Shown here: positions 3,685 to 60,510 of the stretch, in pieces | Layout of the letters: every line of letters starts with the position of its first letter | Position numbering within the stretch: the stretch's first letter is position 1 | Program-made: the position numbers and the translations under genes | NCBI GenBank assembly: GCA_965215605.1 | Contig: OZ244070.1 | Location: 1,344,001-1,408,000 of the forward strand | Origin: an uncultured Candidatus Binatia bacterium | GTDB lineage: Bacteria > Desulfobacterota > Binatia > UBA9968 > JAJDTQ01 | DNA length: 64,000 bases | Direction: 5' to 3' | Notes under the pieces: generated by a model | Seen by the model: only the letters and a program-made list of their open reading frames with translations | What the model was told of the DNA's origin: nothing | Databases searched by the model: none

Positions 3685-3701
3685 ACATCGTGCCGCTAAC
3701 G

Positions 3702-28982: not shown

Positions 28983-29740
28983 GAGTAGCCTTTCTCGACG
29001 CGTTTCAGGCCACGGGCCAGCAGCCCCAGGCCGACGACGAACACCAAGCCCTGGAAGGTCCAATGAACGAGGGCCGGGGGCCACGCCGGCCCCCAGGGCG
29101 CCGTCATCTCCAGGGTGCCGAGATGATAGAGCAGAAACGCCACCGGATTCAATGTTTGCGCCCATGCTCCGAACGCCCCGGAGATCAGGAAGAAGCAGAC
29201 GAAGATCCAGCGGATGAAGACCCGGCGGCTGTCCACCTTGCGCTCCCAGAAGGCCAGGCCCACGAGACCCCAGATGCCGTAAACCACGGCGTACAGGAAC
29301 AGCATGGGAAGGGTGGTGGCCATGTCCCTCAGGGGCGCGCGGGCGATGGCCCCGGACCAGCCCAGCAGCGGCGCCGCGAGCAAGAGCAGGACCAGGCCGT
29401 GGACCGCCAGGACGGCCAGCAGGCCGGACACCACCGCGGCGACGCCGAGACGCTCCTCCTCCAGCCAATGCCGCAGCGGCGAGAACCGCCAGGCCAGGAA
29501 CTCCAGTCCCGCGAACCGCAGCGCCAGGTAGACGATCAGCAGCAGCGTGGCGACGCTCGAGAACTTGAAGAGGAAGGCCGGCCCGACCCAGAAGCTCGCC
29601 TCACCGGAGGGCAGCACCAGCGCCAGCACCTGCAACGCGCCCAGAACGGAGACGTAGAACAGGTAGGTGAGGCAGGCCTGTCCCTCTTCCCAGTAGACCG
29701 CCGCCGCTTCCCGGAAAACCGGATTGGCCCAGGGTCTCAC
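28979..29740 (-). CDS. Multi-pass membrane protein (ABC-2 permease-like)
   Basis: NPVFRE start, about six hydrophobic segments, LNP motif before the last TM. Confidence 0.65.
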   Translation of the reverse strand: MRPWANPVFREAAAVYWEEGQACLTYLFYVSVLGALQVLALVLPSGEASFWVGPAFLFKFSSVATLLLIVYLALRFAGLEFLAWRFSPLRHWLEEERLGVAAVVSGLLAVLAVHGLVLLLLAAPLLGWSGAIARAPLRDMATTLPMLFLYAVVYGIWGLVGLAFWERKVDSRRVFIRWIFVCFFLISGAFGAWAQTLNPVAFLLYHLGTLEMTAPWGPAWPPALVHWTFQGLVFVVGLGLLARGLKRVEKGYS

Positions 29741-31620
29741 AGGTCCTCCTCCCCGGAGCCCAGGGGGATGGCGACACGAAACAGCTTGAAGTGGTGCGCC
29801 GTCACCCGGGGGTCCGCCACCCGAAGCTCCGGCTCCTCGTCCCGGACCCAGCCGATGACGTAAGCCGTCCGGGGGTCCCCGCGGCCGCCGTCCGGGAACA
29901 CCGAGCGGCGCAGCAGGACCTCGCGGACCTCTTCTTCGAAACGGACGCTCTGGGGCTGAAGACGCTCCTCCTCCCCGTCCCGGGCGGGGACGGCGGCCTC
30001 GGGCAGCTCGCGCCGCAGGCGGCCGCCCGGCGGCACGTCCCCGAGCCTGTAGCCCTCTTCACCGATCACGAGCCAGCATTCCGTAAGGCTCCCGGAGCCG
30101 CGGTTGACGATGCCGACGCGGTAGGTTCCGCGGGAGTGCTCCCACTCGATGGTCACCGGCCAGGGGCGCACCGCGCGAAGCCGGAACAACGCCGCGTTCC
30201 ATTCCGGAAGGGGCACCAGGATGCGGTCCCGGGGACGCGCCTGTTGCAGCACCAGCGACGCGCCGGCGGCGGCGCCCGGCGGCGGCACCAGATCGAGCTG
30301 GGTCAGGTCGCGGCCGAGGCTGAAAGAGAAGTCCTTGTGCCGGGTTGCGAAAAGACCCACGTTGGCGTGCACCGGCGCCACGTCCGACCAGGGCGTCCCG
30401 TCCACCACCGTGGAGGAGATCAGGATTCCGTCCGGCACGTGCCCGCCCCGGTCGAAGTACCAGTAACCGCCCAGCGCGCACGCCAGCATCAGCGATGCCG
30501 GGGCCAGCACCAGCCGGCGCCGCGACAGTCCGCCGCCCCTGCCGTAGCGGAACCAGAGCAGCAGCGACCCGATGTAGAGCCCCAGCGCCAGCAGCAGCGC
30601 CAACATCGGCGAACGCAGGCTGGAGAACCCGAAGTCCTGGAGCAACGTCATGAAGATTTCCCGGTTCCAGGCGGTCCACGGGTCCGAAGGTCTGGCGGGC
30701 GGCGCGCCCAGGATCTCCCCGAAGAGCGGCGGGAGGCCGGCCCAATCCGCCACCGGCGGGCGGCCCACGTCCAGCGCCAGATAGACCACCCTGCCCTCGC
30801 CGTGGCTCCGCTCCGCCAGGATGGGCGTGTCTCCCTCCGACATGAGCACCCGGCCGTCCGTGCCCGGGCCGGCGTCCTGCACCAGCGCGTCCTCCAGGAC
30901 GCCGCCGAACCGGGCGGTCAGCGCCGGCAGGGCATCCAGCCGCTTCAGGCCGCGCACCGCCACCGGCAGCAAGCCGGCGGTGGCCGGGTCCCGATAAAGG
31001 GCGAAGTGGGCGCCGCCCAGCACCACCAGCACCCCGCCGCCGGAGAGCCAGCGCTCCAGCGCGCGCCGCTGGCCCCGGGACAGGCCCCGCAGGGACTGCT
31101 CGTAGAGCATGACGCTCCAGACTCCGCCATAGGCCCGGACGTCCTCGGGGAGATCACTCAAGGGGACGGAAACAACCGGCACGGGGGTCTGGTAGTCCAG
31201 CGGGATGGCCGGGGCGACGTTGCTCCGGGTCAGCAGGAGGACCAGCGGCTGGCCGGTGAACCGGCCGCGCAGGCTCACCGAGGTTTCATGGCTTCGGCCG
31301 CCGCCGGTGAAGCGCAAAAGGAGCGGCTGCGCCACCGAATCGGGATCGACGGTGACGAAGACGACCTTGCGCGCGTGGGTGGAGAGAAAGATGTCCCGAC
31401 GCTGGATGAACGAGTAGGGCTCCATGCCCCGGGTGGGTCCGCCGCGGGCCTCCACCACCTCCAGGACGCCCCGGACGGCCACCCCGGAATTCACCAGCTC
31501 GATGCGCACCGGCAAGGGCTCGCCGAGCCGGAAGATGCCTCCGAAACCGGGTTGCGCCCGTATCGAAACGTCGGCCGCCGCCGGACCGGCAGCCAGGAGC
31601 GCCAAGCCGGCCAGAACCAC
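29737..31620 (-). CDS. Exported/membrane hypothetical protein with GATase1-like domain (start uncertain)
   Basis: Signal-peptide-like N-terminus, ALERWLSGGGVLVVLGG, GEGRVVYL, two central TM segments. Confidence 0.7.
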   Translation of the reverse strand: MVLAGLALLAAGPAAADVSIRAQPGFGGIFRLGEPLPVRIELVNSGVAVRGVLEVVEARGGPTRGMEPYSFIQRRDIFLSTHARKVVFVTVDPDSVAQPLLLRFTGGGRSHETSVSLRGRFTGQPLVLLLTRSNVAPAIPLDYQTPVPVVSVPLSDLPEDVRAYGGVWSVMLYEQSLRGLSRGQRRALERWLSGGGVLVVLGGAHFALYRDPATAGLLPVAVRGLKRLDALPALTARFGGVLEDALVQDAGPGTDGRVLMSEGDTPILAERSHGEGRVVYLALDVGRPPVADWAGLPPLFGEILGAPPARPSDPWTAWNREIFMTLLQDFGFSSLRSPMLALLLALGLYIGSLLLWFRYGRGGGLSRRRLVLAPASLMLACALGGYWYFDRGGHVPDGILISSTVVDGTPWSDVAPVHANVGLFATRHKDFSFSLGRDLTQLDLVPPPGAAAGASLVLQQARPRDRILVPLPEWNAALFRLRAVRPWPVTIEWEHSRGTYRVGIVNRGSGSLTECWLVIGEEGYRLGDVPPGGRLRRELPEAAVPARDGEEERLQPQSVRFEEEVREVLLRRSVFPDGGRGDPRTAYVIGWVRDEEPELRVADPRVTAHHFKLFRVAIPLGSGEEDL

Positions 31621-31678
31621 GGCCCACCCCGTTGGTCCCGGCCGCGGCGATGCGCCGGCTGGGCGTAGTCGAAGGAGG

Positions 31679-32167
31679 CTATTCGATGAAAGTGACGTCC
31701 AGTACCTCGAAGTTCCGTACGCCCGCGGGCGTGCGCACCTCCACCAGGTCACCCACCCGCCGGCCGATCAGCGACCGCGCCACCGGCGAGCCCAGGGATA
31801 TCCTCCCCTCCCGAGGCTCTGCCTCGTGCTCGCCGACGATCTGGTAGCTGACGCTCTCCTCGGTATCGTCGTCCACCAGCTTGACGGTGGCGCCGAATAC
31901 GATCCTGTCGCCGGAAAGCTTGGAGACGTCGATGACCTGGGCTCGAGCGATCTTGTCCTCGATCTCGCGAATCTGGACATCGAGAAACGATTGGCGATCC
32001 TTGGCCGCGTGAAACTCGGCGTTCTCCGACAGATCGCCGTGGGCCCGGGCTTCCTCGATGTCCCGGACATTCCTGGGCCGCTCAACGGATTTAAGGCGCT
32101 GAAGATCTGCCAGCAATTGTTGATGCCCCTGCGCCGTCATCGGCACGGGGCCGTCGTTGTCCGCCAT
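31679..32167 (-). CDS. greA: Transcription elongation factor GreA
   Basis: EARAHGDLSENAEFHAAK, ISLGSPVARSLIG. Confidence 0.96.
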   Translation of the reverse strand: MADNDGPVPMTAQGHQQLLADLQRLKSVERPRNVRDIEEARAHGDLSENAEFHAAKDRQSFLDVQIREIEDKIARAQVIDVSKLSGDRIVFGATVKLVDDDTEESVSYQIVGEHEAEPREGRISLGSPVARSLIGRRVGDLVEVRTPAGVRNFEVLDVTFIE

Positions 32168-34347: not shown

Positions 34348-34575
34348 GCGCCGCGGACACTCCCTGCGAACCGGCCCTACCGCACCCGCGCAATGTACCA
34401 AAAAACGGCGGAGGTGCAAACGAGGTTCGTATTGCCTTTTGCTCGATAACAAGCCCGCTTGGCAAGGCTCCACGGAGAGCTTCAAGCGAGGTGTCGTCCG
34501 TGACCCCGTTTCCTTGATAGACAGGCTGAATCCTGTTAGACGCCAACGAGACAGGGGCTTACGCTCCCGGCCGTC

Positions 34576-34878
34576 ATGGAAGCGCCTGACCACAGCCACA
34601 CCGGCGACACGGACGCGCTCATCGAGCAGCTCGCCTTGGCGGTGCATGCCCGCCGCATGACCGTGCCGGCGATCCTCTTCCTGGAAGCCCACAAGCCGCT
34701 GACGTCGCTGTTCCATGCCGCGGCGGTCATGAGCCTGCCGATGCTGCTGCCGCTGTTCGGCGCCCGGGCGCGGGAGTTGCCGGCGTTTCTGCAGTCCCGC
34801 GGCAACGTCGAACGATTGATCCGCCGCATCGAGGCGCTGCAGGACACGGCAGCGGCGGCGAAAGGCGGCGCCGGCTGA
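34576..34878 (+). CDS. Small conserved hypothetical protein, first gene of the GlmL-like operon
   Basis: [17 protein letters not shown]...[10 protein letters not shown]; stop overlaps the next ATG (TGATG). Confidence 0.75.
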
Positions 34879-35687
34879 TGGCGGGCTTCGAGAACGCCAC
34901 TCCCGCGGTGCTGGCGATCATGGCGCTCATGATCGGGCCGGTGCTCTGTTACATTCGCGTGGCGCGGCGCCGTCACGACCTGTACGTGCGACGCCTGACC
35001 GGGGTGGACGCCATCGACGAAGCCGCCGGCCGGTCGGCGGAGCTGGGCCGGCCCCTCTCCTTCTGTACCGGCATCACCAATGTCAGCCCGGTGCTGTACG
35101 CCTGCCTCGGGGTCCTCTACTACGTGGGACGCAAGGCCGCGCAGTACCGCTCGCGCCTGCTGCTGCCCCAGAACACTCCCGAGGTGATGGCCATCGCCGA
35201 GGACGTGCTCCGGGAAGCCTACCGCGCCGAGGGCCGTTCGGCCCAGTTCGACCCGCGCAACATCGTCTTTCTCTCCGAGGAGCAGTTCGCCTTCGCCGCC
35301 GGCTACATCGGGCTGGTGCAGCGGGAGCGCGTGGCCGGCGCCTTCCTCTTCGGCCACTTCGCCGCCGAATCGCTGATCCTGGCGGAGGCCGGACAGCAGG
35401 TGGGGGCCATGCAGGTGGGCGCCTCGGTGAGTCCCGAGCAGGTGGCGTTCTTCATCGCCGCCTGCGACTACACCCTCATCGGCGAGGAGCTGTTCGCCGC
35501 CTCCGCCTATCTCACCCGTGAGCCGGTCCAGCTCGGCAGCCTCTACGGGCAGGACCGGGCCAAGCTCTTCCTCTTCCTCATGATCGTGGCGGGCGTGGGC
35601 ATCGCCACCCTGAACTCCGTATGGCCCGATCTCGGCCTCACCAACCTGGACACGCTCATGCATCTCGGCTGGGGTTTCGGGTCATGA
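34878..35687 (+). CDS. DUF6754-like membrane-anchored protein
   Basis: N-terminal [62 protein letters not shown]-terminal TM; family recalled from memory. Confidence 0.75.
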
Positions 35688-36733
35688 GCTTGCGGGCGCG
35701 TCTCATCAAGCTCGCCACCTTCCTGGGCGGCATCTATTTCTTCCTGGAGTTCGTTCTGCCGGGCACGGTGTTCGGGGTGAAAATCGACGCCTACCACGAC
35801 CAGATCTCCAACGGCTTCATCACGGTGGCGGCCATGGCCGCGGGGCTCGGGCTCATCAACCTGCTCATGCAGCACGGCTCGAGGATCGTCTTCCGGCGCC
35901 GGGGGTGGCTCTACAGCCTGACGTTGCTTGGCGGCCTCGCCATCATGATCGCGGTGACCCTCCAGGACTGGCGCGGCACCGGCCGGGTGGCAGAAGAGGT
36001 GGCGGGCATCTCCCGGCTGGCGGATTTCGCGGAGCGCATCAAGTCGGATCACGAGGCAACGGCGCGAGGGGTCCTGCCCGCGGCCGAGCGCAACCGCAGC
36101 CTCCGGCAGGCGGCGGACAAGCTGCTGGCGCGCATCGAGGACGAGAGCCGCGCCCTCGACCTCGACCGGTTGGGGCTCGGCAGCGCCGATCACGCGCTCG
36201 CGCGGCGCTACGTGGCGGAGGCTGGGGAAGGCGCCGCGGCGGCGCGCGCCGCGGCGGCGGGGCTGACGGTGACCGACGGCGAGGCGGCGGACCTGGCCGC
36301 CAACCTGGCGGTGGCGCGCGCCCTGCGGGGCCTTGCCGAACCCTGGCGCAACCTGCGCAGCCTCGAGTACGAGCACTCCAACCCGAAGCACGTCTACCGG
36401 CTGCTGTTCGAGGGCCTGTTCGTGGCACTGGGTTCGGCCATGTTCTCGCTGTTGGGGTTCTACATCGCGGCCGCGGCCTACCGCGCCTTCCGGGTGCGTT
36501 CCGCCGAGTCGTCGCTGATGATGATCGCCGCCGTGCTGGTCATGCTCGGGCAGATCCCCTTCGGCGTATGGATCTGGTCCGGGCTGCCGGACGTGAGGCT
36601 GTGGCTCCTGGAGGTGCCCAACTCGGCGGCGTTCCGGGCCATCACCATCGGCGCCGGGGTGGCGGGGCTGGTGATGGCGTTCCGCATGTGGTTCTCCATC
36701 GAATCGGAGTCCTTCGACCGGGAGGAGCCCTGA
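35684..36733 (+). CDS. Multi-pass membrane protein with an Ala-rich helical insert
   Basis: ATGA overlap with the upstream gene; three TMs, about 150-aa soluble insert, then AMFSLLGFYIAAAAYRAFRVRS and further TMs. Confidence 0.8.
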   Translation: MSLRARLIKLATFLGGIYFFLEFVLPGTVFGVKIDAYHDQISNGFITVAAMAAGLGLINLLMQHGSRIVFRRRGWLYSLTLLGGLAIMIAVTLQDWRGTGRVAEEVAGISRLADFAERIKSDHEATARGVLPAAERNRSLRQAADKLLARIEDESRALDLDRLGLGSADHALARRYVAEAGEGAAAARAAAAGLTVTDGEAADLAANLAVARALRGLAEPWRNLRSLEYEHSNPKHVYRLLFEGLFVALGSAMFSLLGFYIAAAAYRAFRVRSAESSLMMIAAVLVMLGQIPFGVWIWSGLPDVRLWLLEVPNSAAFRAITIGAGVAGLVMAFRMWFSIESESFDREEP

Positions 36734-36734
36734 C

Positions 36735-37640
36735 GTGGACCTCGCCCGGCTCGACCGCCGCTGGATCTACCTGCTGGTTTTTCTGGCCTTGAGCGTGCCC
36801 ATCGTCACCCAATACACGGTGGAGCCGGCGCGCATGAGCGGCGCGGATCGATTCTTCGAGGTGGTGGACGGCATCGAGGCCGCGCCCGGCCGCTACGCCT
36901 TCGTGGCCATGGACTTCGGCCCCAGCACCAAGGGCGAGAACCAGCCCCAGGCGCGGGCGGTGGTGGAGCATCTGATGCGCAGGCGCATCCCGGTGATCCT
37001 GTTCTCGCTCTATTTCCTCGCCGAGCCGTTCCTCAAATCCATCCCCGAAGAAGTGGCCCGGCAACTCGAGCGCGAGCACCCCGGCGAGACCTGGGAATAC
37101 GGCCGCGACTGGATCAACCTGGGCTACCGGCCGGGGGCGGGCGTCCTCATCCAGGCGATCCCCAAGTCGGAGAACCTCGCCGAGCTGTTCGAGAAGGACA
37201 CCCGCGGCAACCGCATCTCCGAGCTGCCCGCCTTCAGCGGACTGCGCACGTTGCGCCAGATCGCCTTCCTGGCCGAGTTCACCGGCCTGGTGGGTGTCTT
37301 CGACAACTACGTCCAGTACTTCACCAGCAAGGACTACACGCCCGCGTTCGGCCACGGCTGCACCTCCATCACCATCCCGGAAGCGTTCATCTACCTCGAC
37401 TCGGGGCAGATCCAGGGACTGCTGGGGGGCCTGGCGGGGGCGGCGTGGTACTCGGAGCTGCTGCGCCAGCGCTACCCCCGGCGTCCGGTGGACGAGTCGC
37501 TGATGCTCAACACCGGCCTCGGCGTCGCCCAGCTCGTGGTCATCGCCTTCATCGTGCTGGGCAACCTGGCCGGGCTGCTGCGCCCTTCGGCGCCGCGGCG
37601 TGGACGGGAGAAGGGGCCCGGACAGGACACGGAACCATGA
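36735..37640 (+). CDS. Membrane-anchored protein with a probable extracytoplasmic alpha/beta domain
   Basis: DRRWIYLLVFLAL signal-anchor, DFGPSTKGENQP, YGRDWINLGY, SGQIQGLLGGLAGAAWY, C-terminal TM. Confidence 0.8.
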   Translation: MDLARLDRRWIYLLVFLALSVPIVTQYTVEPARMSGADRFFEVVDGIEAAPGRYAFVAMDFGPSTKGENQPQARAVVEHLMRRRIPVILFSLYFLAEPFLKSIPEEVARQLEREHPGETWEYGRDWINLGYRPGAGVLIQAIPKSENLAELFEKDTRGNRISELPAFSGLRTLRQIAFLAEFTGLVGVFDNYVQYFTSKDYTPAFGHGCTSITIPEAFIYLDSGQIQGLLGGLAGAAWYSELLRQRYPRRPVDESLMLNTGLGVAQLVVIAFIVLGNLAGLLRPSAPRRGREKGPGQDTEP

Positions 37641-38347
37641 CGGCCCTGGACACCTGGCATACGGCCACGGTCCTGGTGGGGGGCATCGGGACGCTGGCGA
37701 TCTTCAGCTTCCTGATCAAGGAGAACCCGTTCTTCCGGCTGTTCGAGCACCTGTTCATCGGCATCGCCGCCGGCTTCGGCATGGTCTTCGGCGTCAAGAA
37801 CTTCCTGTGGCCGAAGGTTCTGGTGCCGATGCTCGGCCTGGACATCGTCACCTATCCCGACGGCAGCCTCTCCCACGAGTACGACCCCCGGCTGCTGCTC
37901 TACCTCGCGCCCATGGTCTTCGGCCTCTTCTACTACTTCCTGTACTCACGGCGGTACGCGTGGCTCGCCAAGCTGGTCATCGGCTTCTCCCTGGGGATGA
38001 GCGGCGGGCTCGCCTTCAAGGGATTCTTCAACCAGATCATGCCCCAGGTGGCGAGCAGCTTCCGGCCCCTGGCGGTGTTCGAGGACGGCGCCCTGAATCT
38101 GGCCGGCAGCTTGGAGAACGCGTTCTTCATCTTCACGCTGCTGGCCGTCATGTACTACTTCTTCTTCTCGTTCCGGCACGAGAACCGGGCGGCCAACGGC
38201 CTCTCGCTCTCCGGCCGGTGGCTCCTGATGGTGTGCTTCGGGGCCTTCTTCGGCTCCACGGTCATGGCGCGCACCGCGCTGCTGGTGGAGCGGGTGCAGT
38301 TCCTGCTGATCGACTGGTACGGCGCGCTGGCGGGGCTGGTGACGTGA
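37637..38347 (+). CDS. Multi-pass membrane protein
   Basis: ATGA overlap; TLAIFSFLIKENPFFRLFEHLFIGIAAG, GRWLLMVCFGAFFGSTVMAR; about six TMs. Confidence 0.8.
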   Translation: MTALDTWHTATVLVGGIGTLAIFSFLIKENPFFRLFEHLFIGIAAGFGMVFGVKNFLWPKVLVPMLGLDIVTYPDGSLSHEYDPRLLLYLAPMVFGLFYYFLYSRRYAWLAKLVIGFSLGMSGGLAFKGFFNQIMPQVASSFRPLAVFEDGALNLAGSLENAFFIFTLLAVMYYFFFSFRHENRAANGLSLSGRWLLMVCFGAFFGSTVMARTALLVERVQFLLIDWYGALAGLVT

Positions 38348-40182
38348 AAACCGACCCGGACACGCTCCGCACCGTGCTGGTCACCGACTGCGGCTCCACC
38401 ACCACCAAGGCGCTGCTGTTCGAGAAGACCCCCGAGGGGTGGCGCCAGACCCGCCGCGGGGAGGCGCCCACCACCGTGGAGCAGCCGGTGGCCGACGTGA
38501 CCGTGGGAGCGCTGAACGCTTTCGCCGAGGTGGAAGAGATCAGCGGCCGGCAGATCCTGGCGGCGGACGCGGCGGCGGGACGCGGCGCGCCGTTCGTCGA
38601 GTCGGGCGAGGACCCCGCCCACGGCATCGACCTCTACCTCTCCACCAGCTCCGCCGGCGGCGGGTTGCAGATGACCGTGGCCGGGGTGGCGCGGCAGATG
38701 AGCGCGGAGTCGGCGGAACGCGCGGCCTTGAGCGCCGGCGCCATCGTCATGGACGCCATCTCCGCCGACGACGGGCGCGAGGACCACGAGCGCATTCAGC
38801 GGCTGCGCCACCTGAGGCCGGACATCGTGCTGCTCACCGGCGGCGTCGACGGCGGCTCCCAGGAGCACGTGGTGGAAATGGCGGAGACCCTGGTGGCGGC
38901 GGCGCCCCGGCCCCGGTTCGGCGACTCGCTGCGGCTGCCGGTGATCTACGCGGGCAACAGCCACGCCGTGGACGACGTCCGGGGCATCCTCGAGAAGACC
39001 GCCCAGGTGGCGGTGGTGGACAACGTGCGCCCGACCCTGGAGGCCGAGAACCTCGGCCCGGCCCGGGAGGCCATCCACGAGTTCTTCCTCACCCACGTCA
39101 TGAGCCACTCGCCCGGCTACGACAAGCTGCTGCGGTGGACCCCGACGCCGGTGATGCCCACGCCGGCGGCGGTGGGGGACATGGTGCGCGGCTACGCCGA
39201 GAGCACCGGCCGGGCGCTCTTGTGCGTGGATATCGGCGGCGCCACCACCGACGTCTTCAGCGTCTTCGAGAACCGGGACGGCGAGCGAGTGTTCAACCGC
39301 ACGGTGAGCGCCAACCTGGGCATGAGCTACTCCGTGGCCAACGTGCTGATCGAGGCCGGCGCCGAATCCATCGGCCGCTGGCTGCCCTACCCACTGGAGG
39401 CCGCCGAGATCCGGGACCGGCTGCGCAACAAGATGATCCGCCCCACCTCCATCCCCCAGACCCTGGAGGACCTGTGGCTGGAGCAGGCGGTGTGCCGCGA
39501 GGCCCTGCGGCTGGCGCTGGTGCATCACCGCTCGCTTGCGGTGGGGCTCAGCGGCGTGCAGCAGCAGCGCGGCATCGCCGACATCTTCTCGCAGACCGCC
39601 GGCCGCTCGGACCTGGTGGACATGATGGGCCTCGACCTGGTCATCGGCTCCGGCGGCGTGCTCAGCCACGCCCCGGACCGCATGGCGGCCGCGCTCATGA
39701 TCCTGGAGGGGTTCGAGCTCCAGGGCTTCACCCAGATCGCGGTGGACTCCATCTTCATGATGCCCCACCTGGGGGTCTTCGCCTCCGTCCATCCCGAGGC
39801 CGCCCGGGAGATCTTCCTGCACGACTGCCTGGTGAACGTGGCCCACGCCGTCGTGCCGGTCTTCTCCCGCAAGCGGAGGCCGGGGTCGGTGCTGGCCGAG
39901 GTGTCGGTGGACGGCGCCCGGCCCGGCGCCATCACCGCCGGCGGCGTCGGCCACGTCCCGCTCGATGCCGGCGCCGCGGCGCGGATCATCATCGAGCCCG
40001 CGGGCCGGGACGTCGACGTGGGCGCCGGGCCGGGGACGGCCCTGCTGCGGGAGTTCACCACCGGACTCTGCGGCCTGATCCTCGACGGCCGCAACCGCCC
40101 GCTGCGAACCCCGGCGTCCCCGGACCAGCAGGTCGCGGAACGGCAGGCCGTCATGGAGGAATTGGGGCTCACCGGATCATGA
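38344..40182 (+). CDS. GlmL/MutL (glutamate-mutase-L-like) actin-fold ASKHA ATPase
   Basis: Phosphate-1 TDCGSTTTK, STSSAGGGL, LTGGVDGG, phosphate-2 VDIGGATTDVFS, adenosine-like IGSGGVLSHAP; GTGA overlap. Confidence 0.85.
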   Translation: MKTDPDTLRTVLVTDCGSTTTKALLFEKTPEGWRQTRRGEAPTTVEQPVADVTVGALNAFAEVEEISGRQILAADAAAGRGAPFVESGEDPAHGIDLYLSTSSAGGGLQMTVAGVARQMSAESAERAALSAGAIVMDAISADDGREDHERIQRLRHLRPDIVLLTGGVDGGSQEHVVEMAETLVAAAPRPRFGDSLRLPVIYAGNSHAVDDVRGILEKTAQVAVVDNVRPTLEAENLGPAREAIHEFFLTHVMSHSPGYDKLLRWTPTPVMPTPAAVGDMVRGYAESTGRALLCVDIGGATTDVFSVFENRDGERVFNRTVSANLGMSYSVANVLIEAGAESIGRWLPYPLEAAEIRDRLRNKMIRPTSIPQTLEDLWLEQAVCREALRLALVHHRSLAVGLSGVQQQRGIADIFSQTAGRSDLVDMMGLDLVIGSGGVLSHAPDRMAAALMILEGFELQGFTQIAVDSIFMMPHLGVFASVHPEAAREIFLHDCLVNVAHAVVPVFSRKRRPGSVLAEVSVDGARPGAITAGGVGHVPLDAGAAARIIIEPAGRDVDVGAGPGTALLREFTTGLCGLILDGRNRPLRTPASPDQQVAERQAVMEELGLTGS

Positions 40183-41294
40183 CCCAGGCGCTCACACCCG
40201 GACTTCAGGTGCTGGCCGGCACGGTGGTGCGGAAGACCCGCGAGTTGCCGGTGCCAGGGGAGACCCTGTGCCGGCTTGGCGACACCGTGACGCCGTACGC
40301 CGTGGTGGCCCGGGCCGAGCTGCCCGGCGAGATCACCATCCTGCGCATACCCGAGAGCCTCGGCATCGAGCCCCTCGAGGCGCTCAATGGGCTCAAGGTG
40401 GACGAAGGCGACGCGGTCGCCGAGGGCGATCTCGTGTGCGAGCACGTGGGACTGTTCGGGCTCTTCCGGTCACGCCTCCACGCGTCCGTGGACGGCACCG
40501 TCGAGTTCGTCGCCCGGCGCACCGGCCACCTGGGGCTTCGGCTGGCGCCCCACGCCATCGAGCTGCGCGCCTACGTGCCCGGCAAGGTGGTGGGGATCGA
40601 CCCCGGCAAGTCCGTCACCATCGAGAGCCGCGGCGCGTTCATCCAGGGCATCTTCGGCGTCGGCGGCGAACGCTACGGCACCATCCGCATGCTGGACGGC
40701 GGCCCCCGGACGGTGGTGGGCAGGAAAAGGATACCCGACGACGCGGCCGGACAGGTGCTGGTGGGAGGCACCCGCCCGACCCTCGAGGCCATCCAGCGGG
40801 CCGCGGAAGTGGGCGCCGCCGGCATGGTGGTGGGATCCATCGACGACCAGACCCTCACCGCCTACCTCGGATACGAGCTCGGCATGGCGGTGACCGGCCA
40901 CGAGGACGTCCCCCTCACCGTCATCGTCACCGAAGGCTTCGGCTGGCTGCCCCTGGCCGAGCGCACCCACTCCCTGCTCCAGAGCCTCGACGGCCGCGCC
41001 GCCTCCGTCAACGGCGCCACCCAGGTGCGGGCCGGCGCGGTGCGCCCGGAAATCATCGTCGCCCGTGACGATGTCGAGCCCGGCGGCGGGGAAGAGGACG
41101 CGGAAACCGGCCTGCGAATCGGCGCCCCCATCCGCATCATCCGGGTCCCCCACTTCGGCGTCACCGCGGAGGTGGCCGCCCTGCCCCCCGAACCCCAGCC
41201 CATCGAAACCGGCGCCCGCACCCGCGTCCTGGAAGCCCGGCTGCCCGACGGCAAGGTCGTCACCGTGCCGCGGGCCAACGTGGAACTGCTCTGA
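40179..41294 (+). CDS. Conserved hypothetical protein with biotinyl/lipoyl-like hairpin repeats and an SH3/KOW-like C-terminus
   Basis: ATGA overlap; V.EGD.V-type repeats, IQGIFGVGGE, LGMAVTGHE, IVTEGFG, NGATQVRAGAVRPEI, VPRANVE. Confidence 0.75.
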   Translation: MTQALTPGLQVLAGTVVRKTRELPVPGETLCRLGDTVTPYAVVARAELPGEITILRIPESLGIEPLEALNGLKVDEGDAVAEGDLVCEHVGLFGLFRSRLHASVDGTVEFVARRTGHLGLRLAPHAIELRAYVPGKVVGIDPGKSVTIESRGAFIQGIFGVGGERYGTIRMLDGGPRTVVGRKRIPDDAAGQVLVGGTRPTLEAIQRAAEVGAAGMVVGSIDDQTLTAYLGYELGMAVTGHEDVPLTVIVTEGFGWLPLAERTHSLLQSLDGRAASVNGATQVRAGAVRPEIIVARDDVEPGGGEEDAETGLRIGAPIRIIRVPHFGVTAEVAALPPEPQPIETGARTRVLEARLPDGKVVTVPRANVELL

Positions 41295-44436: not shown

Positions 44437-47148
<2,712 letters not shown>

Positions 47149-50657: not shown

Positions 50658-52676
50658 GTGACCGATTCGCCGGAGGCGTTGAAGGCAGAGATCCGGGAGT
50701 TGACCGACAAGGTGGCGGAGCACGGCTACCGCTACCACGTCCTGGACGACCCGCGAATTACCGATTCCGAGTACGACGAGCTGTTCCGGCGTCTGTCGAA
50801 GCTGGAGCGGGAGCATCCGGAGCTGGCCCTGCCCAACTCGCCCACGGCCAAGGTGGGGGGGCCGCCGCTGGACAGGTTCACCACCGTGCGGCACACCCTG
50901 CCGATGCTGTCGCTGGACAACATCACGAACCGGGACGAGCTGGCGGAGTTCGAACAGCGGATCCAGCGTTTTCTCAAGACCGCCGACCCGCTGGAATACG
51001 TGGTGGAGCCCAAGATCGACGGCGTCGGCGTCGAGCTGGTGTACGAGGACGGCGAACTGGCGGTGGCCTCCACCCGGGGGGACGGGGTCGACGGCGAGGA
51101 CATCACCCAGAACGTCCGCACCATCCGCTCCGTGGCCCTGTCGCTGCGCCGGGACGGGGCGCCGGCGCCGCGGCTGCTGGCGGTGCGCGGCGAGGTATTC
51201 TATCCCACCGCGGGCTTCCAACGCCTCAACCGGGATCGGGAGGAAGCCGGCGAGTACGTGTTCGCCAACCCCCGCAACGCCGCCGCCGGCGCGCTCAAGC
51301 AACTGGACTCCAAGATCACCGCCAGCCGCCCGCTGGACCTCTTCTGCCACGGCATGGGCGCGGTGGAGCCGGCGTCGTTCGCCAGCCAGGCGGATTTCCT
51401 TTTCAAGCTGGAGGAATGGGGGCTCAAGCCGGTGCCCCTCACCCGGGCGTGCCGGGGCGTGGACGAGGTGGTCGCCTATCAGGAGGAGATGGAAGGCCAG
51501 CGCGACGCGTTGCCCTACGAGATCGACGGCGTGGTGCTCAAGGTCAACAGCCTGGAGCTGCAGCGGCGCCTGGGGCAGATCGCCCGCTCGCCGCGCTGGG
51601 CCATGGCTTACAAGTTCAAGCCGCGCCAGTCCACCACCCGCATCCTCGACATCCAGCCCCAGGTGGGGCGCACCGGCGCGCTCACGCCGGTGGCCAGCCT
51701 CGAGCCGGTTCAGTTGGCGGGGGTCACGGTGCGGAACGCGTCGCTGCACAACATGGACGAGATCCAGCGCAAGGACATCCGCGTCGGCGACACCATCGTC
51801 ATCGAGCGCGCCGGCGACGTGATCCCCTACGTGGTGCGGGTGCTCGCCGGCGAGCGCGGCGGCGGCGAGCGGCCCTTCGAGATGCCGGCCCAGTGCCCCA
51901 TGTGCGGCTCCCGGGTCTACCGCGAGGAGGGCGAAGCCGCCTACCGTTGCGTGGGGCTGTCGTGCCCGGCCAAGCTGAAGCAAAGCCTCGAGTTCTTCGG
52001 CTCCCGCCACGCCCTGGACATCGAGGGGCTGGGCGAGAAGCTCATCGACCAGTTGGTGGAGAAGAAGCTCGTGGCGGACAGCGCCGACCTCTTCGGGCTC
52101 GACGAGGACACGTTGTCGTCACTGGAGCGCATGGGGGCCAAGTCGGCGCAGAATCTGATGCGGGAGCTGGAACGCAGCAAGGACGCCACGCTGTCGCGGT
52201 TCGTCACCGCCCTGGGGATACGGCACGTGGGCGAAGCCACGGCCAAGGTGCTGGCGGAGCACTTCGGCACCCTGGACGGCATCATGGGCGCGGGCGAAGA
52301 GGCCCTCACGGAGGTGCGGGACATCGGCCCGGAGGTGGCCAAGAGCATCGCCGGCTTTTTCGCGGACGCGGGCAACCGAGGGGTCATCGACAAGCTGCTG
52401 GCCCACGGTTTCCAGCTCAAGGCGGAGGCCCGGGCCGAGGGGGCGCTGAGCGGGAAGAGCTTCGTGCTCACGGGGAGCCTGGAGACCATGTCCCGCAGCG
52501 AGGCGCAGAAGATGATCGCGGCCCTGGGGGGGCGGGTGTCGGGGAGCGTCAGCGGCAAGACCGATTACGTGGTGGTGGGTGCGGACCCGGGGTCGAAGGC
52601 GGCCAAGGCGGAGGAGATGGGGGTCCGGGTTCTTGACGAGGATGGGCTGCGGGCTTTGCTGGAGGGGGGGGGCTGA
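50658..52676 (+). CDS. ligA: NAD-dependent DNA ligase
   Basis: EPKIDG adenylation motif, TRGDG, FANPRNAAAG, zinc finger, BRCT domain. Confidence 0.97.
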   Translation: MTDSPEALKAEIRELTDKVAEHGYRYHVLDDPRITDSEYDELFRRLSKLEREHPELALPNSPTAKVGGPPLDRFTTVRHTLPMLSLDNITNRDELAEFEQRIQRFLKTADPLEYVVEPKIDGVGVELVYEDGELAVASTRGDGVDGEDITQNVRTIRSVALSLRRDGAPAPRLLAVRGEVFYPTAGFQRLNRDREEAGEYVFANPRNAAAGALKQLDSKITASRPLDLFCHGMGAVEPASFASQADFLFKLEEWGLKPVPLTRACRGVDEVVAYQEEMEGQRDALPYEIDGVVLKVNSLELQRRLGQIARSPRWAMAYKFKPRQSTTRILDIQPQVGRTGALTPVASLEPVQLAGVTVRNASLHNMDEIQRKDIRVGDTIVIERAGDVIPYVVRVLAGERGGGERPFEMPAQCPMCGSRVYREEGEAAYRCVGLSCPAKLKQSLEFFGSRHALDIEGLGEKLIDQLVEKKLVADSADLFGLDEDTLSSLERMGAKSAQNLMRELERSKDATLSRFVTALGIRHVGEATAKVLAEHFGTLDGIMGAGEEALTEVRDIGPEVAKSIAGFFADAGNRGVIDKLLAHGFQLKAEARAEGALSGKSFVLTGSLETMSRSEAQKMIAALGGRVSGSVSGKTDYVVVGADPGSKAAKAEEMGVRVLDEDGLRALLEGGG

Positions 52677-52679
52677 GGG

Positions 52680-52794
52680 GCGGGGTGGAGAGGATGGGGG
52701 TGTGGATGGGGGTGTGGTGTGGAGGAAGGGGGTGTGGTGTGGAGGAAGGGGCGGGGAGGACCGGGCGTGGAGGACCGGGCGTGGAGGACCGGCG
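52680..52794 (+). repeat. G-rich short tandem repeats (GGGGGTGTGGTGTGGAGGAA twice; GGAGGACCGGGCGT about 2.5 times)
   Basis: Read directly from the sequence. Confidence 0.75.
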
Positions 52795-52926
52795 CAGGGA
52801 TCGGGGCAGGGATCGGGGCAGGGATCGGGGCAGGGATCGGGGCAGGGATCGGGGCAGGGATCGGGGCAGGGATCGGGGCAGGGATCGGGGCAGGGATCGG
52901 GGCAGGGATCGGGGCAGGGATCGGGG
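52795..52926 (+). repeat. Perfect 12-bp tandem repeat (CAGGGATCGGGG) x11
   Basis: Counted directly; no spacers. Confidence 0.95.
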
Positions 52927-52987
52927 GCAAGGCCCCGTGATGATGGAGGGCGGACCCAACATCATCACGGGGCCTTGCCCCCGATCC
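52918..52987. repeat. Perfect 28-bp inverted repeat with 14-nt loop
   Basis: GGATCGGGGGCAAGGCCCCGTGATGATG and CATCATCACGGGGCCTTGCCCCCGATCC. Confidence 0.92.
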
Positions 52988-53091
52988 TTGGCAGCGGCGT
53001 CGTGCCGGGGCCTGACCCCGGGTTCGGCTCTGTCTTCACCCCGGGTTTGACCGGGGGTGACGGAGGCAGGGGGCCGGGACAGGTTCGGATT

Positions 53092-53925
53092 ATGCTTTAC
53101 GTGGTTGCGACGCCCATCGGCAATCTGGAGGATATCACGTTGCGCGCGTTGCGGGTGCTGCGGGAGGTGGATCTTATTGCGGCGGAGGATACCCGGCAGA
53201 CCCGGAAGCTGCTGGCCCGGTACGACATCGACACGGCGGTCACGAGCTACCACGAGAACAATGAGCGCGCCAAGGCGGATGCGCTGGCGCGGCGGCTGGA
53301 GGCGGGGGAGGATATTGCGCTGGTTTCGGACGCGGGCACGCCTACCATCTCGGACCCGGGGTATCATCTGATCCGGGCGGCGGCGGAGAAGGGGGTGGCG
53401 GTGACACCGGTGCCGGGGGTGTCGGCGGCGGTGGCGGCGCTGAGCGTGAGCGGGCTGGCCACGGACCGGTTCGTGTTCCAGGGGTTCCTGCCGGCGCGGC
53501 AGGGCAAGCGGCGGGAAACCCTGCGGCAACTTCAGGGCGACGACCGGACGCTGGTGTTCTACGAGGCGCCGCACCGGATCCGGGAGGCGCTGGCGGACAT
53601 GCACGAGGTGTTGGGGGACCGGGCCGCGGCGGTGGGCCGGGAGCTGACCAAGGTGCACGAGGAGTTGCTGCGGGGGACGCTGTCTCAACTGGCGGAAGCA
53701 CTGGAAGAGACTCCCGCGCGTGGGGAGTTCGTCATCGTTGTGGAGGGGCGCGGCGAGACGCCGCGGGTGGACGAGGAGGCATTGCGGGCGGAGATCGGAA
53801 AGCTCCTGGAGGCCGGCCGCTCGGCCAACGACGCGGCCAAGCTCATCGCGCAGACGTTTTCGCTGGTGAAACGGGACGTCTACAGGTTGGTGCTGGAGGT
53901 TGCCAAGCGGCGGTTGCGACCCTAG
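53092..53925 (+). CDS. rsmI: 16S rRNA C1402 2'-O-methyltransferase
   Basis: MLYVVATPIGNLEDITLRA, AAEDTR, VSDAGTPTISDPG, YEAPHR, RELTK. Confidence 0.96.
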   Translation: MLYVVATPIGNLEDITLRALRVLREVDLIAAEDTRQTRKLLARYDIDTAVTSYHENNERAKADALARRLEAGEDIALVSDAGTPTISDPGYHLIRAAAEKGVAVTPVPGVSAAVAALSVSGLATDRFVFQGFLPARQGKRRETLRQLQGDDRTLVFYEAPHRIREALADMHEVLGDRAAAVGRELTKVHEELLRGTLSQLAEALEETPARGEFVIVVEGRGETPRVDEEALRAEIGKLLEAGRSANDAAKLIAQTFSLVKRDVYRLVLEVAKRRLRP

Positions 53926-53944
53926 ACCCGGGGAGGTCCTGCCA

Positions 53945-54232
53945 TCAAGCCCGGCTGGCTCGGATCTCTCCCCGCAACTCGGAGAACTCCCGCGCCAGGT
54001 CGTGAAGCTTCTTCTGCAAACCGTCTATCCTGCCTTCCAGGCGATCGATCCTGATTTCCAGACGGTCGATCCTGACCTCCAGGTGGTCGATCCTCGCGTC
54101 GAGTCGGTCGATCCTGCCTTCCAGACGATCGATCCTCGTGTCCAGACGCGTCTCGAGCCGGACCATTACCCGCCAGTTGAAAGCGGCAAGGGCTATGCCG
54201 ACCCCGATTATTGTGATCATCTCACCCGTCAC
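53945..54232 (-). CDS. Small N-terminally anchored heptad-repeat coiled-coil protein
   Basis: MITIIGVGIALAAF TM then about six (RIDRLEG)-type heptads; GAGGA upstream. Confidence 0.7.
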   Translation of the reverse strand: MTGEMITIIGVGIALAAFNWRVMVRLETRLDTRIDRLEGRIDRLDARIDHLEVRIDRLEIRIDRLEGRIDGLQKKLHDLAREFSELRGEIRASRA

Positions 54233-54357
54233 GTGCCGTCCTCAAATGCCGTGCGTGAATATGTCCCATACTAGTTAATTCGGCATGAGCGGTCAATTCT
54301 TTAATTGTCGTTTTCAAAAAGGCGGAACTGCCGCCCAAACCCCTGGAAGCGAGGGAG

Positions 54358-55173
54358 TTACCTGCCCCAGTCGCGGGAGTAGCGGAAGTCGCGGTCTATG
54401 GTGCGGTGGGAGACCTTGGCGATGACCGGGAGGCGGCGCTTGAACTGGGAGGTCCGGATGCGGCGGGCGATGTCGTCGACGAAGCCGGGCTCGAAGCCGG
54501 CGGCGATGAGCTCGGGGCGGCCGTAGCGCTGGTCCACCATGCGGTAGAGCAGCTCGTCCACCGCGCGGTAGCTGAAGCCCAGCTCGGCCTCGTCGGTCTG
54601 CCCGGCCCACAGGTCGGCGGAGGGTTTCTTGTCGACGATGACGTCGGGGACGCCGACGGCCTCGCTCAGGGCCCATACCTGGGTCTTGTAGAGGTCCCCC
54701 AGGGGGTTGAGGGCCGACGCCATGTCGCCGTGGAGGGTGCCGTAGCCCAGCAGCAGCTCGGTCTTGTTGCTGGTGCCGGCCACCAGCGCGTCCCACCGGG
54801 CGGAGTGGTCGTAGAGGATGGTCATGCGCTCCCGGGCCATCTTGTTGCCGCGCCGCTTGGGGTCAGCATCCGGAAACGCCTCGAAATAGGCGTCGATCTG
54901 GGCGGTGATCTCCACGGCCGCGGAGCGGATGCCGCTCTTCTCCACCACCAGGCGGGCATGCTCCAGGCTCTCGGCGCTGGAAGCCCGGTAGGGCATCATG
55001 ATGCCCAGCACCTGCTCCGGCCCCAGGGCCTCGGCCGCCAGCATGGCGCTCAGGCTGGAATCCACCCCGCCGGAAAGGCCCACCACCACCCGCTCGAGGC
55101 CGACCTTGCGCACCTCGTTCCGGATGAAGGCCACCAGGATCCGGCGCAGCAGTGACACGTTGGTGGGAATCAT
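54358..55173 (-). CDS. nadE: NAD+ synthetase, synthetase subunit
   Basis: [10 protein letters not shown]-loop, [35 protein letters not shown]. Confidence 0.95.
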
Positions 55174-55188
55174 CGCCCCTCTGTTTCC

Positions 55189-56034
55189 TCAGTCGCGGCG
55201 GATGCGCTCCAATTCCCGGATGGTGAGGTCCACGTCCTCGTCGCGCAACAGCGGCGCGCGGGTGCGCTTGCGGCGCGCCACCTCGTGGGAGACCTCCCCG
55301 ACCAGGAAGGCCTCCTCGTAGTAGTCCGCCTTGCACACCGCGCGGCCGAAAGGGTCGAGGATGCCCGAGCCGCCCCAGAAGCCCACGCCGTCCTCGAAGC
55401 CCACCCGGTTGGCGTGCACCACGAACAGGCCGAAGGTCTCGGCGTAGCTCCGGGTGATGAGCTCCCAGTAGCGCGCGTTGTCGTCCTGGTCGGCGCCGTC
55501 GGTGACGCCGCGCAGCGGGCTCGACGACGGACAGAGGACCGTCAGGGCGCCGTCAAGGGCGGCCAGGTAGACGGTGGACGGATGCCACAGGTCTTCGCAG
55601 ATGAGCAGCGCCAGCCGGCCGTGGCGGGTGTCGAAGGCCCGCAGCCGGCCGCCCCGGGCGAAGTAGCGCTGCTCGTCGAACATGCCGTAGGTGGGCAGGT
55701 ACACCTTGCGGTGGACGTGCCGGACCTCGCCGTCCTCCAGGTAGACCGCGGCGTTGAAGAACCGGTGGTCCGGGCTTTCCAGCACGAGGCCGGCCACCAG
55801 CGACACCTCCCGGCTCAACGCCTTGAGCCGCTCCATCTCCGGGCTCTCCAGCCGCACCGCCACGTCCGGAACCATGTCCCGCAGGAAGTAACCCGTGAGG
55901 CTCAGCTCGGGGAACACCACCAGCTCCACGGCCGCCGCGGCCGCCTCACGGACTCCGGCCTCGTAGAGGTCCATGTTGGCGGCCACGTCCCCCAATCTGG
56001 GGTTGATCTGCGCCATGCCCACTCGGAACGACAT
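55189..56034 (-). CDS. Nitrilase-family (carbon-nitrogen hydrolase) protein, probable glutaminase subunit of NAD synthetase
   Basis: FPELSLTGY (Glu), HRKVYLPTYGMFDEQRYF (Lys), ICEDLW (Cys); immediately upstream of nadE. Confidence 0.88.
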   Translation of the reverse strand: MSFRVGMAQINPRLGDVAANMDLYEAGVREAAAAAVELVVFPELSLTGYFLRDMVPDVAVRLESPEMERLKALSREVSLVAGLVLESPDHRFFNAAVYLEDGEVRHVHRKVYLPTYGMFDEQRYFARGGRLRAFDTRHGRLALLICEDLWHPSTVYLAALDGALTVLCPSSSPLRGVTDGADQDDNARYWELITRSYAETFGLFVVHANRVGFEDGVGFWGGSGILDPFGRAVCKADYYEEAFLVGEVSHEVARRKRTRAPLLRDEDVDLTIRELERIRRD

Positions 56035-56127
56035 GAGAGGGGGGCTAACACATTTACGCCATTTCGTCACCCCGGCCCGGGAGCGCCGATGGAACCCCTC
56101 CTGGAATTCGGGAACACCATCGGCTAC

Positions 56128-57207: not shown

Positions 57208-57941
57208 GGGCGATGCTGTTCGCGGCCGGGCTGGGCACGCGGCTCCGGCCCCTCACCGACAGCCTGCCCAAGTGCCTGGTGCCGGTGAACGGCCGGCCCA
57301 TGATCGACTACCCGCTGCTGCTGCTGCGCCACTACGGCGTCCGCGAGATCGTGGTCAACGTGCACCACTTCGCGGACCGGGTGGAGGACTACCTGGGAGA
57401 CGGCTCCCGCTTCGGCGTGGAGGTCGCGTACTCCAGGGAAGAGACCCTGCTGGACACCGGCGGCGGCCTGCTGGGGGCGCGTCGGTTCCTGGATGACGGC
57501 ACCTTCGTGGTGGTGAACAGCGACGTGCTGATCGATCTGCGGCTGGACCAGGTGCTGCTGTTTCACCGGCGGCGGCAGGCGGCCGCCACCCTGGTGCTGC
57601 GGAAGGATCCGGAAGCGGAGGCCTACGGGGCCATCTGGACGGACGGACGGGGCGTCATCGGGCGGTTGCTGGAACACGAGGCGCCCGGCCGGCCCTCGGG
57701 GAAGCTGGAACGGTACATGTTCACCGGCGTCCACGTGCTGGAGCCGGACATCTTCCGATACATGGAGGGCGCGGAGCCTTTCAGCATAACGCGGTCAACG
57801 TATCCGGCGATGCTCAGGGGAGCCGAGCGGCTGTGCGGCTTTCGGTTCGACGGTGAATGGCAGGACCTGGGGACCCGCGAGCGGCTCAGCGCCACGGAGC
57901 AGCGGCTCCGGGACGGCGCCTGGAAGCCGCACTTTCTCTAA
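57204..57941 (+). CDS. murU: MurU-like nucleotidyltransferase
   Basis: AAGLGTRLRPLT..PK, LDTGGG, WQDLGT; GTGA overlap with amgK. Confidence 0.8.
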   Translation: MRAMLFAAGLGTRLRPLTDSLPKCLVPVNGRPMIDYPLLLLRHYGVREIVVNVHHFADRVEDYLGDGSRFGVEVAYSREETLLDTGGGLLGARRFLDDGTFVVVNSDVLIDLRLDQVLLFHRRRQAAATLVLRKDPEAEAYGAIWTDGRGVIGRLLEHEAPGRPSGKLERYMFTGVHVLEPDIFRYMEGAEPFSITRSTYPAMLRGAERLCGFRFDGEWQDLGTRERLSATEQRLRDGAWKPHFL

Positions 57942-57988
57942 CCGCCCGGATTCTTGAGGGCACGGGCATTTCGTCCAGGGTGGGCGGG

Positions 57989-58372: not shown

Positions 58373-58469
58373 TCCTCACTTTCAGTGTATGAATGAAGAA
58401 TCGGCCGGTCAAGTATTTTCTTTAGCCCGAAGGCGGGACCGTCGATGGCGAGGGCGATGTTGTTGAGGG

Positions 58470-60494: not shown

Positions 60495-60510
60495 TTGAGT
60501 GAGCGACAGC

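Follow-up and report, generated by a model that had tools for sequence, protein, structure and literature searches.

The window analyzed here is a stretch of 64,000 nucleotides (nt) from an uncultured Candidatus Binatia bacterium (assembly GCA_965215605.1, contig OZ244070.1, positions 1,344,001 to 1,408,000 of the forward strand). Seven co-oriented genes of its + strand, g1 to g7, occupy positions 34576–41294 and bring together an ATPase of the GlmL/MutL family and a set of membrane proteins. Gene g1 (34576–34878) encodes a protein of 100 amino acids (aa) with one hydrophobic segment; g2 (34878–35687), a 269-aa protein with the DUF6754 domain (PF20539); g3 (35684–36733), a 349-aa polytopic membrane protein; g4 (36735–37640), a 301-aa protein with a membrane helix at each end; g5 (37637–38347), a 236-aa polytopic membrane protein; g6 (38344–40182, GTG start), a 612-aa ASKHA ATPase of family PF13941 (MutL); and g7 (40179–41294), a soluble 371-aa protein of three domains. 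The seven open reading frames (ORFs) overlap or abut: g1 and g2 share 1 nt, g2 and g3 share 4 nt, g3 and g4 are 1 nt apart, and each of the remaining three pairs overlaps by 4 nt; these coordinates bear out the operon layout described in the first-pass annotation. The presumed promoter region (34348..34575, no strand assigned) lies between a divergent ABC ATPase gene on the – strand and g1, its left boundary being estimated from translation; no sigma-70-like site was found by the consensus scan, and the promoter is placed by position only. The same scan shows two terminator-like sites only, both on the – strand, a count not above that in shuffled sequences. The window has approximately 68% G+C, and the G+C content of the cluster is similar to that of its flanks, which hold peptide-type ABC genes (SBP_bac_5, permeases, and oligo_HPY ATPases) and greA.

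Only g2 and g6 match Pfam families above the cut-off; no match is seen for g3, g4, or g5. Sequence searches of the PDB yield no relative for any of the seven proteins: nothing is found with the g2 profile, the g5 profile, or the g6 protein, and the g6 profile gives one match with E 0.15. No cysteine cluster suggestive of a redox cofactor is seen in the seven proteins. Hydropathy assigns two membrane segments each to g2 and g4, six to g3, and five or six to g5, while g1 has a single hydrophobic segment and g6 and g7 have no such segment; this agrees with the earlier description of two doubly anchored and two polytopic proteins.

The g6 protein matches PF13941 with E 2.3e-121 and 406.2 bits (gathering score 27) over profile positions 1–449 of 450, and hence belongs to this family, as do GlmL/MutL, accessory protein of glutamate (methylaspartate) mutase, and the GlmL-related ornithine-degradation protein Or-4. 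Its scores are below the cut-offs of all three NCBIfam models, NF040745 (GlmL equivalog, 213.8 bits, cut-off 475), TIGR01319 (glmL_fam subfamily, 175 bits, cut-off 204.05), and NF040744, so that by NCBI criteria g6 is a relative of the family, not GlmL. Both phosphate loops noted in the first-pass annotation, DCGSTTTK and DIGGATTD, are present and invariant in 29 orthologues. In the alignment of these 29 sequences, which has 72% mean column identity across phylum-level distances, residues D15–K22, D296–D303, and G435–V439 are invariant; we take them to be the phosphate-1, phosphate-2, and adenosine motifs, and they place g6 in the ASKHA group. With GlmL/MutL, g6 shares the motifs DxGSTxTK, SSAxGGL, MPTPxAV, DxGGATTDV, and GxGG, but it is about 150 residues longer than these canonical proteins, with clade-specific inserts and a C-terminal extension of approximately 115 aa (497–612), and falls in a separate clade. 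A match to MreB-like_C is below the threshold (E 0.0036, 18.3 bits, cut-off 27.8), and no other actin-like family (of the PilM, FtsA, or MreB kind) is matched in Pfam at the cut-off.

In a tree of 57 proteins, 45 ATPases associated with DUF6754 are split from 12 canonical ones by a branch with SH-aLRT 100 (IQ-TREE quick search, LG+G4, no bootstraps; the branches are long). A smaller tree agrees, setting the linked ATPases apart from the canonical GlmL-type proteins of approximately 460 aa. Canonical members are also seen in the same phylum, where 24 of 300 other genomes have PF13941; their complete genes score 473–567 bits and have open frames of about 450–520 aa. Four neighborhoods of the canonical gene were inspected. 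In the first it adjoins GlmE; in the second it is flanked on one side by an ornithine/lysine aminomutase that has a B12-binding domain and on the other by an arginase/racemase fusion; in the third it is adjacent to an enolase-superfamily protein and a GntR regulator, and in the fourth to ABC and acyl-CoA synthetase genes. By these trees, the linked ATPases are a separate branch of the GlmL/MutL family, which otherwise serves B12-dependent mutases, and this branch is dedicated to the seven-gene core.

Searches for B12 mutases point the same way. In its own genome (4.06 Mb, 97% complete), g6 is the single PF13941 gene, GlmE (PF06368) has no match, and the three matches to the B12-binding domain are 1–1.8 Mb away from the window, which itself holds none; the statement of the first-pass annotation that neither operon nor window encodes a mutase thus extends, for GlmE, to the whole genome. 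At the loci examined, g6 of the cluster never adjoins a B12 mutase and is always accompanied by DUF6754 and four other proteins. We also counted the families in the 124 genomes of one phylum (that of genome G042, reached via locus L076, whose record is labelled Bdellovibrionota). Here DUF6754 is seen in 117 genomes, single-copy PF13941 in 120 (E up to 1e-10), and GlmE over its cut-off in none; both DUF6754 and PF13941 are present in 115 genomes, DUF6754 only in 2, PF13941 only in 5, and neither in 2 (both of 1.5 Mb). Comparison of the co-occurrence of the cluster with that of GlmE had been proposed as a check of the earlier claim that this GlmL-family ATPase is unlinked to glutamate mutase, and the counts support the claim. 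Judged by gene content, the g6 clade has no mutase partner and no link to B12 mutases.

The seven genes recur together across distant lineages. More than 6900 relatives of g2 are present in a large protein collection; the named ones are all "hypothetical," with 60–75% identity across differently labelled lineages. Genome loci were taken as the best 80 of 235 confirmed stretches from a scan of species genomes; the nearest are labelled Candidatus Binatia, others Bdellovibrionota, Bdellovibrionales, Oligoflexia, Deltaproteobacteria, and Candidatus Dadabacteria. With tblastn, g1 is found in 67 of these loci, g2 in 80, g3 in 79, g4 in 78, g5 in 73, g6 in 65, and g7 in 58, with constant order and strand, and most misses fall at contig ends. 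All seven genes are complete and in the same order in 48 of the 80 loci, i.e., they are clustered far beyond chance. The statement of the first-pass annotation that similar clusters occur in diverse bacteria is thereby substantiated, both by tblastn and by the profile searches described below.

Three well-flanked loci are without g6 and g7. The corresponding genomes all encode g6 elsewhere, with g7 directly behind it; this separates the core into two modules, a membrane module (g1–g5 in this arrangement) and a soluble module (g6, g7). Five Binatia relatives carry a low-GC insert of 580–880 bp between g5 and g6 (L016:13441–14232, L021:13491–14371, L029:13569–14338, L030:13440–14192, and L031:13440–14023), with 47–59% G+C compared to about 68% in the window; in four of the five it encodes a protein of approximately 160–190 aa with one hydrophobic segment and the motifs AIYHHA and ADDL.YDQ. 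The insert splits the operon exactly at the module boundary.

In 30–34 of the 58 non-Binatia loci, g1 is preceded by two extra co-oriented genes. Their products, one membrane-anchored and one bearing a signal peptide, have long coiled coils and no Pfam match (e.g., L035:7821–8846 and L035:8843–9727), and were not found in the own genome with single-protein queries; they could represent periplasmic components of the machine that are particular to these lineages. In 14 loci of one lineage, two PilT-like (T2SSE) ATPase genes lie a few kb upstream of the cluster (e.g., L035:1598–2677 and 2705–3832; L033:1711–2847). They are accompanied by NUDIX, hexapeptide-transferase, and porin O/P genes, which may be plain synteny.

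A different arrangement is seen in metagenomes. The g2 profile, run against 1.84 billion cluster representatives, matches 2363 proteins at E up to 0.001 (each a cluster at 50% identity) and 946 of these reach an E of 1e-30 or lower. Long forms of 400–1276 aa, with the DUF6754 domain at the C-terminus or the N-terminus, are frequent among the best 150 matches, and the labels seen are Candidatus Brocadiia, Planctomycetota, and Abditibacteriales. Each of the ten long forms scanned matches DUF6754; in two, an Ig-like domain follows the DUF6754 domain (He_PIG in one, PKD below its cut-off in the other), and one long form begins with a signal-peptide-like segment followed by about 420 residues and then by a membrane helix. 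A metagenome scan with 12 long forms matched at least 593 stretches, 587 of which were confirmed, and the best 80 were taken as loci. Profiles applied to the open frames of these 80 loci, many on short contigs, find g2 in 80, g3 in 66, g4 in 57, g5 in 45, g7 in 34, g6 in 29, and g1 in 17; among the 11 loci with full 10-kb flanks, g3–g5 are seen in all 11 and g6 in 8. The common order in these full-flank loci is g1-g6-g7-g2-g3-g4-g5, with g1 directly upstream of g6, so that here g1 travels with the soluble module. No non-core gene family occurs in more than 7 of the 80 loci (SDR, PPDK, and an ExbB homologue each recur in 4–6), and in the absence of another recurrent family the seven genes are taken as the core. 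A gene of approximately 260 aa with no Pfam match lies between g6 and g7 in six long-form loci, including L151:1303–2076 (– strand); its product may be an extra component that this subgroup adds to the soluble module. The seven-gene core is thus inherited, lost, and rearranged as two modules.

Loss and gain are seen most clearly around the window's own lineage. DUF6754 is present in 22 of the 24 other genomes of the genus, in none of 16 genomes from other genera of the same order, and in none of 300 further genomes from 200 genera in the rest of the phylum. The two genus members that lack DUF6754 (99 and 98% complete) also lack PF13941, while two of two DUF6754-positive genomes have it. When the canonical proteins are used as the root of the tree, the four Binatia sequences fall among those labelled Bdellovibrionota and Dadabacteria. 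This nesting, together with the restriction to one genus in the phylum, suggests that the Binatia genus gained the cluster horizontally.

On the membrane side, g2 is a member of DUF6754 (E 1.2e-81, 274.1 bits, gathering score 27) with 65% mean column identity. Its AlphaFold2 model (pLDDT 81.2, pTM 0.75) consists of a membrane helix (9–30), a six-stranded Rossmann-like alpha/beta domain (approximately 40–213), and a second, long membrane helix (216–248). Invariant acidic and Gln residues include E164, E170, Q173, Q179, E187, Q188, D197, E203, E204, and D226. The fold matches are generic: sirtuins (Z 10.4), phosphoglycerate kinase (9.5), transhydrogenase domain III (9.2), and RCK/KTN (about 9). 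A B12-binding domain was considered for g2 and set aside, with no invariant histidine and no B12 domain among the top 50 fold matches. The termini of g2 lack Lys and Arg, an Arg-rich stretch follows the first helix, and by this charge pattern the domain is predicted to lie in the cytoplasm. The domain of g4, approximately 235 aa between the two membrane helices, is predicted to be periplasmic, since both g4 termini are rich in Lys and Arg. The terminal extensions of long-form g2, which are of extracytoplasmic type, are consistent with both placements.

The g4 protein has invariant residues D60, E68, E78, H79, and H207-G-C-T-S211. It gives no meaningful Pfam match in 28 orthologues, only noise in the PDB sequence search, and no usable match in the Atlas search of named clusters. 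The polytopic proteins g3 and g5 are unrelated to each other (hhalign probability 0.4). In g3, a central helical loop of about 146 aa (94–239) is variable, conserved charged residues include R267, R270, E275, R305, R318, R334, and E340, and the PDB search by sequence yields coiled-coil noise only; its relatives in long-form loci are open frames of approximately 220–230 aa, shorter by roughly the loop length. The g5 protein has 64% mean column identity and no PDB match by profile; its feature neighbors in the Atlas are clusters of hypothetical proteins, the few labelled members being from Chloroflexota, Fermentibacterota, and Armatimonadota. The small g1 protein is weakly conserved (33% mean column identity), with a hydrophobic segment at residues 45–63 and the motifs PAI(F/L)FLExxKPL and VExLIxxIE.

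The AlphaFold2 model of g7 (pLDDT 88.4) has three domains: a barrel-sandwich hybrid (approximately 10–150), a swivelling beta/beta/alpha domain (approximately 152–299), and a KOW/SH3-like barrel (308–371). The barrel-sandwich hybrid (51–123) superimposes on NqrA over 64 residues with Z 7.9 and rmsd 1.8, and on RnfC with Z 7.7; it also matches lipoyl and biotinyl domains and HlyD; g7 has a weak Pfam match to RnfC_N (E 0.018). The swivelling domain resembles PTS Enzyme I (Z 9.3, rmsd 3.0 over 110 residues), rifampin phosphotransferase (8.5), and RraA (8.3), and the C-terminal barrel resembles NusG, Spt5, PsaE, NdhS, and PetP (Z 7–8). Since values of Z near 8 are common according to the search tool, these are fold assignments, not functions. 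The first-pass annotation had described biotinyl/lipoyl-like hairpin repeats; the biotinyl/lipoyl-like fold is retained as the barrel-sandwich hybrid, but it is one of three domains, not a series of repeats. The invariant and nearly invariant columns of the g7 alignment hold no lysine, whereas a biotinyl or lipoyl carrier would need a conserved, modifiable one in the hairpin. A phosphohistidine domain as in enzymes utilizing PEP was rejected, with no invariant histidine in 152–299 and no match to PF00391.

Contact between the modules was addressed by complex prediction for g6 with g2, with alignments in matched order, in three runs and with three controls. The pair scores 0.59 (runs 0.58–0.59) and the best control 0.00; at least 92% of the contacts are shared among the runs, with a pLDDT of 71 or more for the partner. 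In calibration, 58 of the 80 solved complexes reach the mark, and so do 2 of the 110 mismatches; in the range up to 0.60, however, the passes comprise only 7 of the 80 solved complexes, together with both mismatches. The predicted contact is hence a lead that fits the co-inheritance of the two genes, not proof.

Strict co-occurrence, co-loss, and this weak complex prediction suggest that g6 may energize the membrane complex. With somewhat more than even confidence, we read the seven genes as one two-module, ATP-driven coupling machine that spans the membrane. Its membrane module, g2–g5, would have the cytoplasmic Rossmann-like domain of g2 slung between two helices, the periplasmic domain of g4 held likewise, and g3 and g5 as polytopic parts with conserved charged residues; g6 and g7 would form the cytoplasmic module, with g1 alongside. 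Aided by g7, g6 would bind the cytoplasmic g2 domain and remodel it by ATP binding and hydrolysis, and the change would pass via the membrane helices to the periplasmic domain of g4 and to the extracytoplasmic extensions of long-form g2. The presumed direction of energy flow is thus from ATP outwards, and the outcome would be an ATP-driven device that couples the two sides of the inner membrane, with the envelope or some substrate as its target. The mechanism proposed here is borrowed from the role ascribed to GlmL relatives, namely the remodelling of a small Rossmann-like subunit that binds B12. A single sentence of PMC4682846 supports this view of GlmL relatives. Our boldest reading, a tentative one, is of a new class of inner-membrane energizing machine, in which a dedicated complex of four membrane proteins reaching the periplasm is driven by an ASKHA ATPase of GlmL lineage and not by one of the ABC, AAA+, P-type, or secretion kinds; such a machine would be ancient, widespread, and a core trait of at least one uncultured phylum, and would have an envelope function with no described counterpart.

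Several observations weigh against the coupling machine. The support for the g6–g2 pair is graded as weak, and the tool itself warns that most passes of this kind are false if the contact was not likely beforehand; the complex result covers this one pair. The g2 fold has 144 chains at Z of at least 8, with no clear winner. The topologies are based on hydropathy and charge counts only, and as g3, g4, and g5 have neither a recognizable family nor a model, a channel or transporter role is indistinguishable for them from a coupling role. Two of the 24 genus members lack the system, so there it is dispensable. As for the mutases, the GlmE search gave a signal above the cut-off in none of 14 control genomes; in a direct scan, the PF06368 model scored 441 bits on the GlmE located beside a canonical GlmL.

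An alternative is a peptide or amino-acid transporter or a secretion system energized by the ASKHA ATPase, in line with the first-pass annotation, which named transport, secretion, or signalling as possible roles. The two polytopic proteins have conserved charged residues in or near the membrane segments, they strictly co-occur with a cytoplasmic ATPase, and the cluster in the window sits between peptide-type ABC genes. The last of these had been taken in the first-pass annotation as a hint at peptide or amino-acid handling. This clue fails, as ABC flanks are common to Binatia loci only and are not beside the cluster in other lineages; no family of flanking genes accompanies the cluster from one lineage to another, no further conserved neighbor with an informative family was found, and the largest non-core family of the metagenome loci is that present in 7 of 80. 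Moreover, g2–g5 match no Pfam transporter family and, by sequence, no solved transporter, and we know of no transporter driven by an ASKHA ATPase. We consider a transporter unlikely.

Lower still we place a membrane-tethered, actin-like filament formed by g6, serving as a cytoskeletal or a cell-shape or division system. The ASKHA fold, the sub-threshold MreB-like_C match, the upstream coiled-coil membrane proteins in many loci, and the near-universal presence of a single-copy gene in one phylum are compatible with it. However, 122 of the 124 genomes in question have MreB itself, frequently as more than one copy, and on this count the idea that g6 replaces MreB was rejected. Moreover, to our knowledge polymerization of GlmL-family proteins has not been reported.

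It is very improbable that g6 is an ordinary reactivase or chaperone of a B12 mutase encoded elsewhere, with its adjacency to the membrane genes incidental. PF13941 membership, the canonical members of the same phylum that adjoin GlmE or an aminomutase, and the B12-binding-domain proteins encoded elsewhere in the own genome would suit such a role; against it stand the scores under the GlmL cut-offs (213.8 vs. 475 and 175 vs. 204 bits), the absence of GlmE from the own genome, the lack of any GlmE over the cut-off in the 124 genomes of which 120 have relatives of g6, the separate clade with its C-terminal extension, and the gain and loss of g6 together with DUF6754. A mobile accessory cassette, e.g., an anti-phage defense system, is hardly credible: the patchiness in the own phylum (22/24 in one genus vs. 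0/300 elsewhere), the Binatia rows inside another lineage in the tree, and the five Binatia loci with a low-GC insert in the operon might be expected of it, but none of the seven proteins matches PADLOC-DB 2.0 at E up to 0.01, almost every genome of a whole phylum has the gene as a single copy, conservation is high (72% mean column identity for g6), the G+C content matches that of the flanks, and no integrase or repeat was noticed, though no search was aimed at them.

The coupling machine proposed here resembles several known systems in part. Diol and glycerol dehydratase reactivases and EutA are actin-fold ATPases that remodel a partner protein, and the alpha subunit of diol dehydratase reactivase joins the ATPase domain with a swivelling domain. 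Here it is g7 that carries the swivelling domain, a B12 enzyme is missing, and the partner we propose is a Rossmann-like domain anchored in the membrane; the 50 best fold matches of g7 include no reactivase. In PilM-PilN, FtsA, and MreB-RodZ, a cytoplasmic actin-fold protein is coupled to bitopic or polytopic partners in the inner membrane that reach the periplasm. The logic would be the same here, but the ASKHA subfamily is different, and MreB is present separately. FtsEX, MacB, and LolCDE pass cytoplasmic ATP hydrolysis through membrane helices to a periplasmic domain; the proposed principle is alike, and in some lineages putative coiled-coil periplasmic partners are seen as well, but the similarity is conceptual only, as the seven-gene set has no ABC ATPase or FtsX-type domain. 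The likeness to NqrA and RnfC is confined to the barrel-sandwich domain of g7, at a commonly reached Z, and the rest of g7 differs. We place the system outside the known kinds, and what is new is the system and its distribution. In keeping with the first-pass annotation, which knew of no functional study, we found no literature on the system, on DUF6754, or on PF13941; databases list the proteins as hypothetical or as DUF6754. The single paper found on GlmL together with glutamate mutase deals with mesaconase, and a term search of the text of a paper on a cyanobacterial actin-like family (PMC12645912) finds neither MutL nor GlmL.

Five of the seven proteins match no family, and a sixth only a domain of unknown function; still, the set is conserved like housekeeping machinery and has thousands of relatives in metagenomes. 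If g6 indeed drives the membrane complex, this would be a form of ATP-to-envelope coupling absent from textbooks, and the GlmL/MutL family, a group with hardly any known biochemistry and no PDB relative by sequence, would gain a second, possibly major, role unrelated to vitamin B12. The system also provides a concrete, testable way into the cell biology of lineages for which metagenomes are the only source.

Other features of the window lie apart from the cluster. Five tRNA genes are clustered at 719–1366 on the – strand (Rfam RF00005, 59.6–69.7 bits). Beside greA, a 671-aa open frame (29737–31752, – strand) has no Pfam match at E up to 1e-5 and shows hydrophobic segments at the N-terminus and in the middle of the protein; a + strand frame overlaps it in high-GC DNA. 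The G+C content drops to 0.59–0.61 at 58001–62000, a part in which no RNA family is matched, and the GC skew rises sharply within 52001–58000 (0.25 at 52001–54000, 0.15 at 56001–58000). Finally, a single 903-aa gene at 44437–47148 (+ strand) combines a BPD_transp_1 permease with two ABC ATPase domains with oligo_HPY, a fusion unusual for a peptide-type ABC importer.

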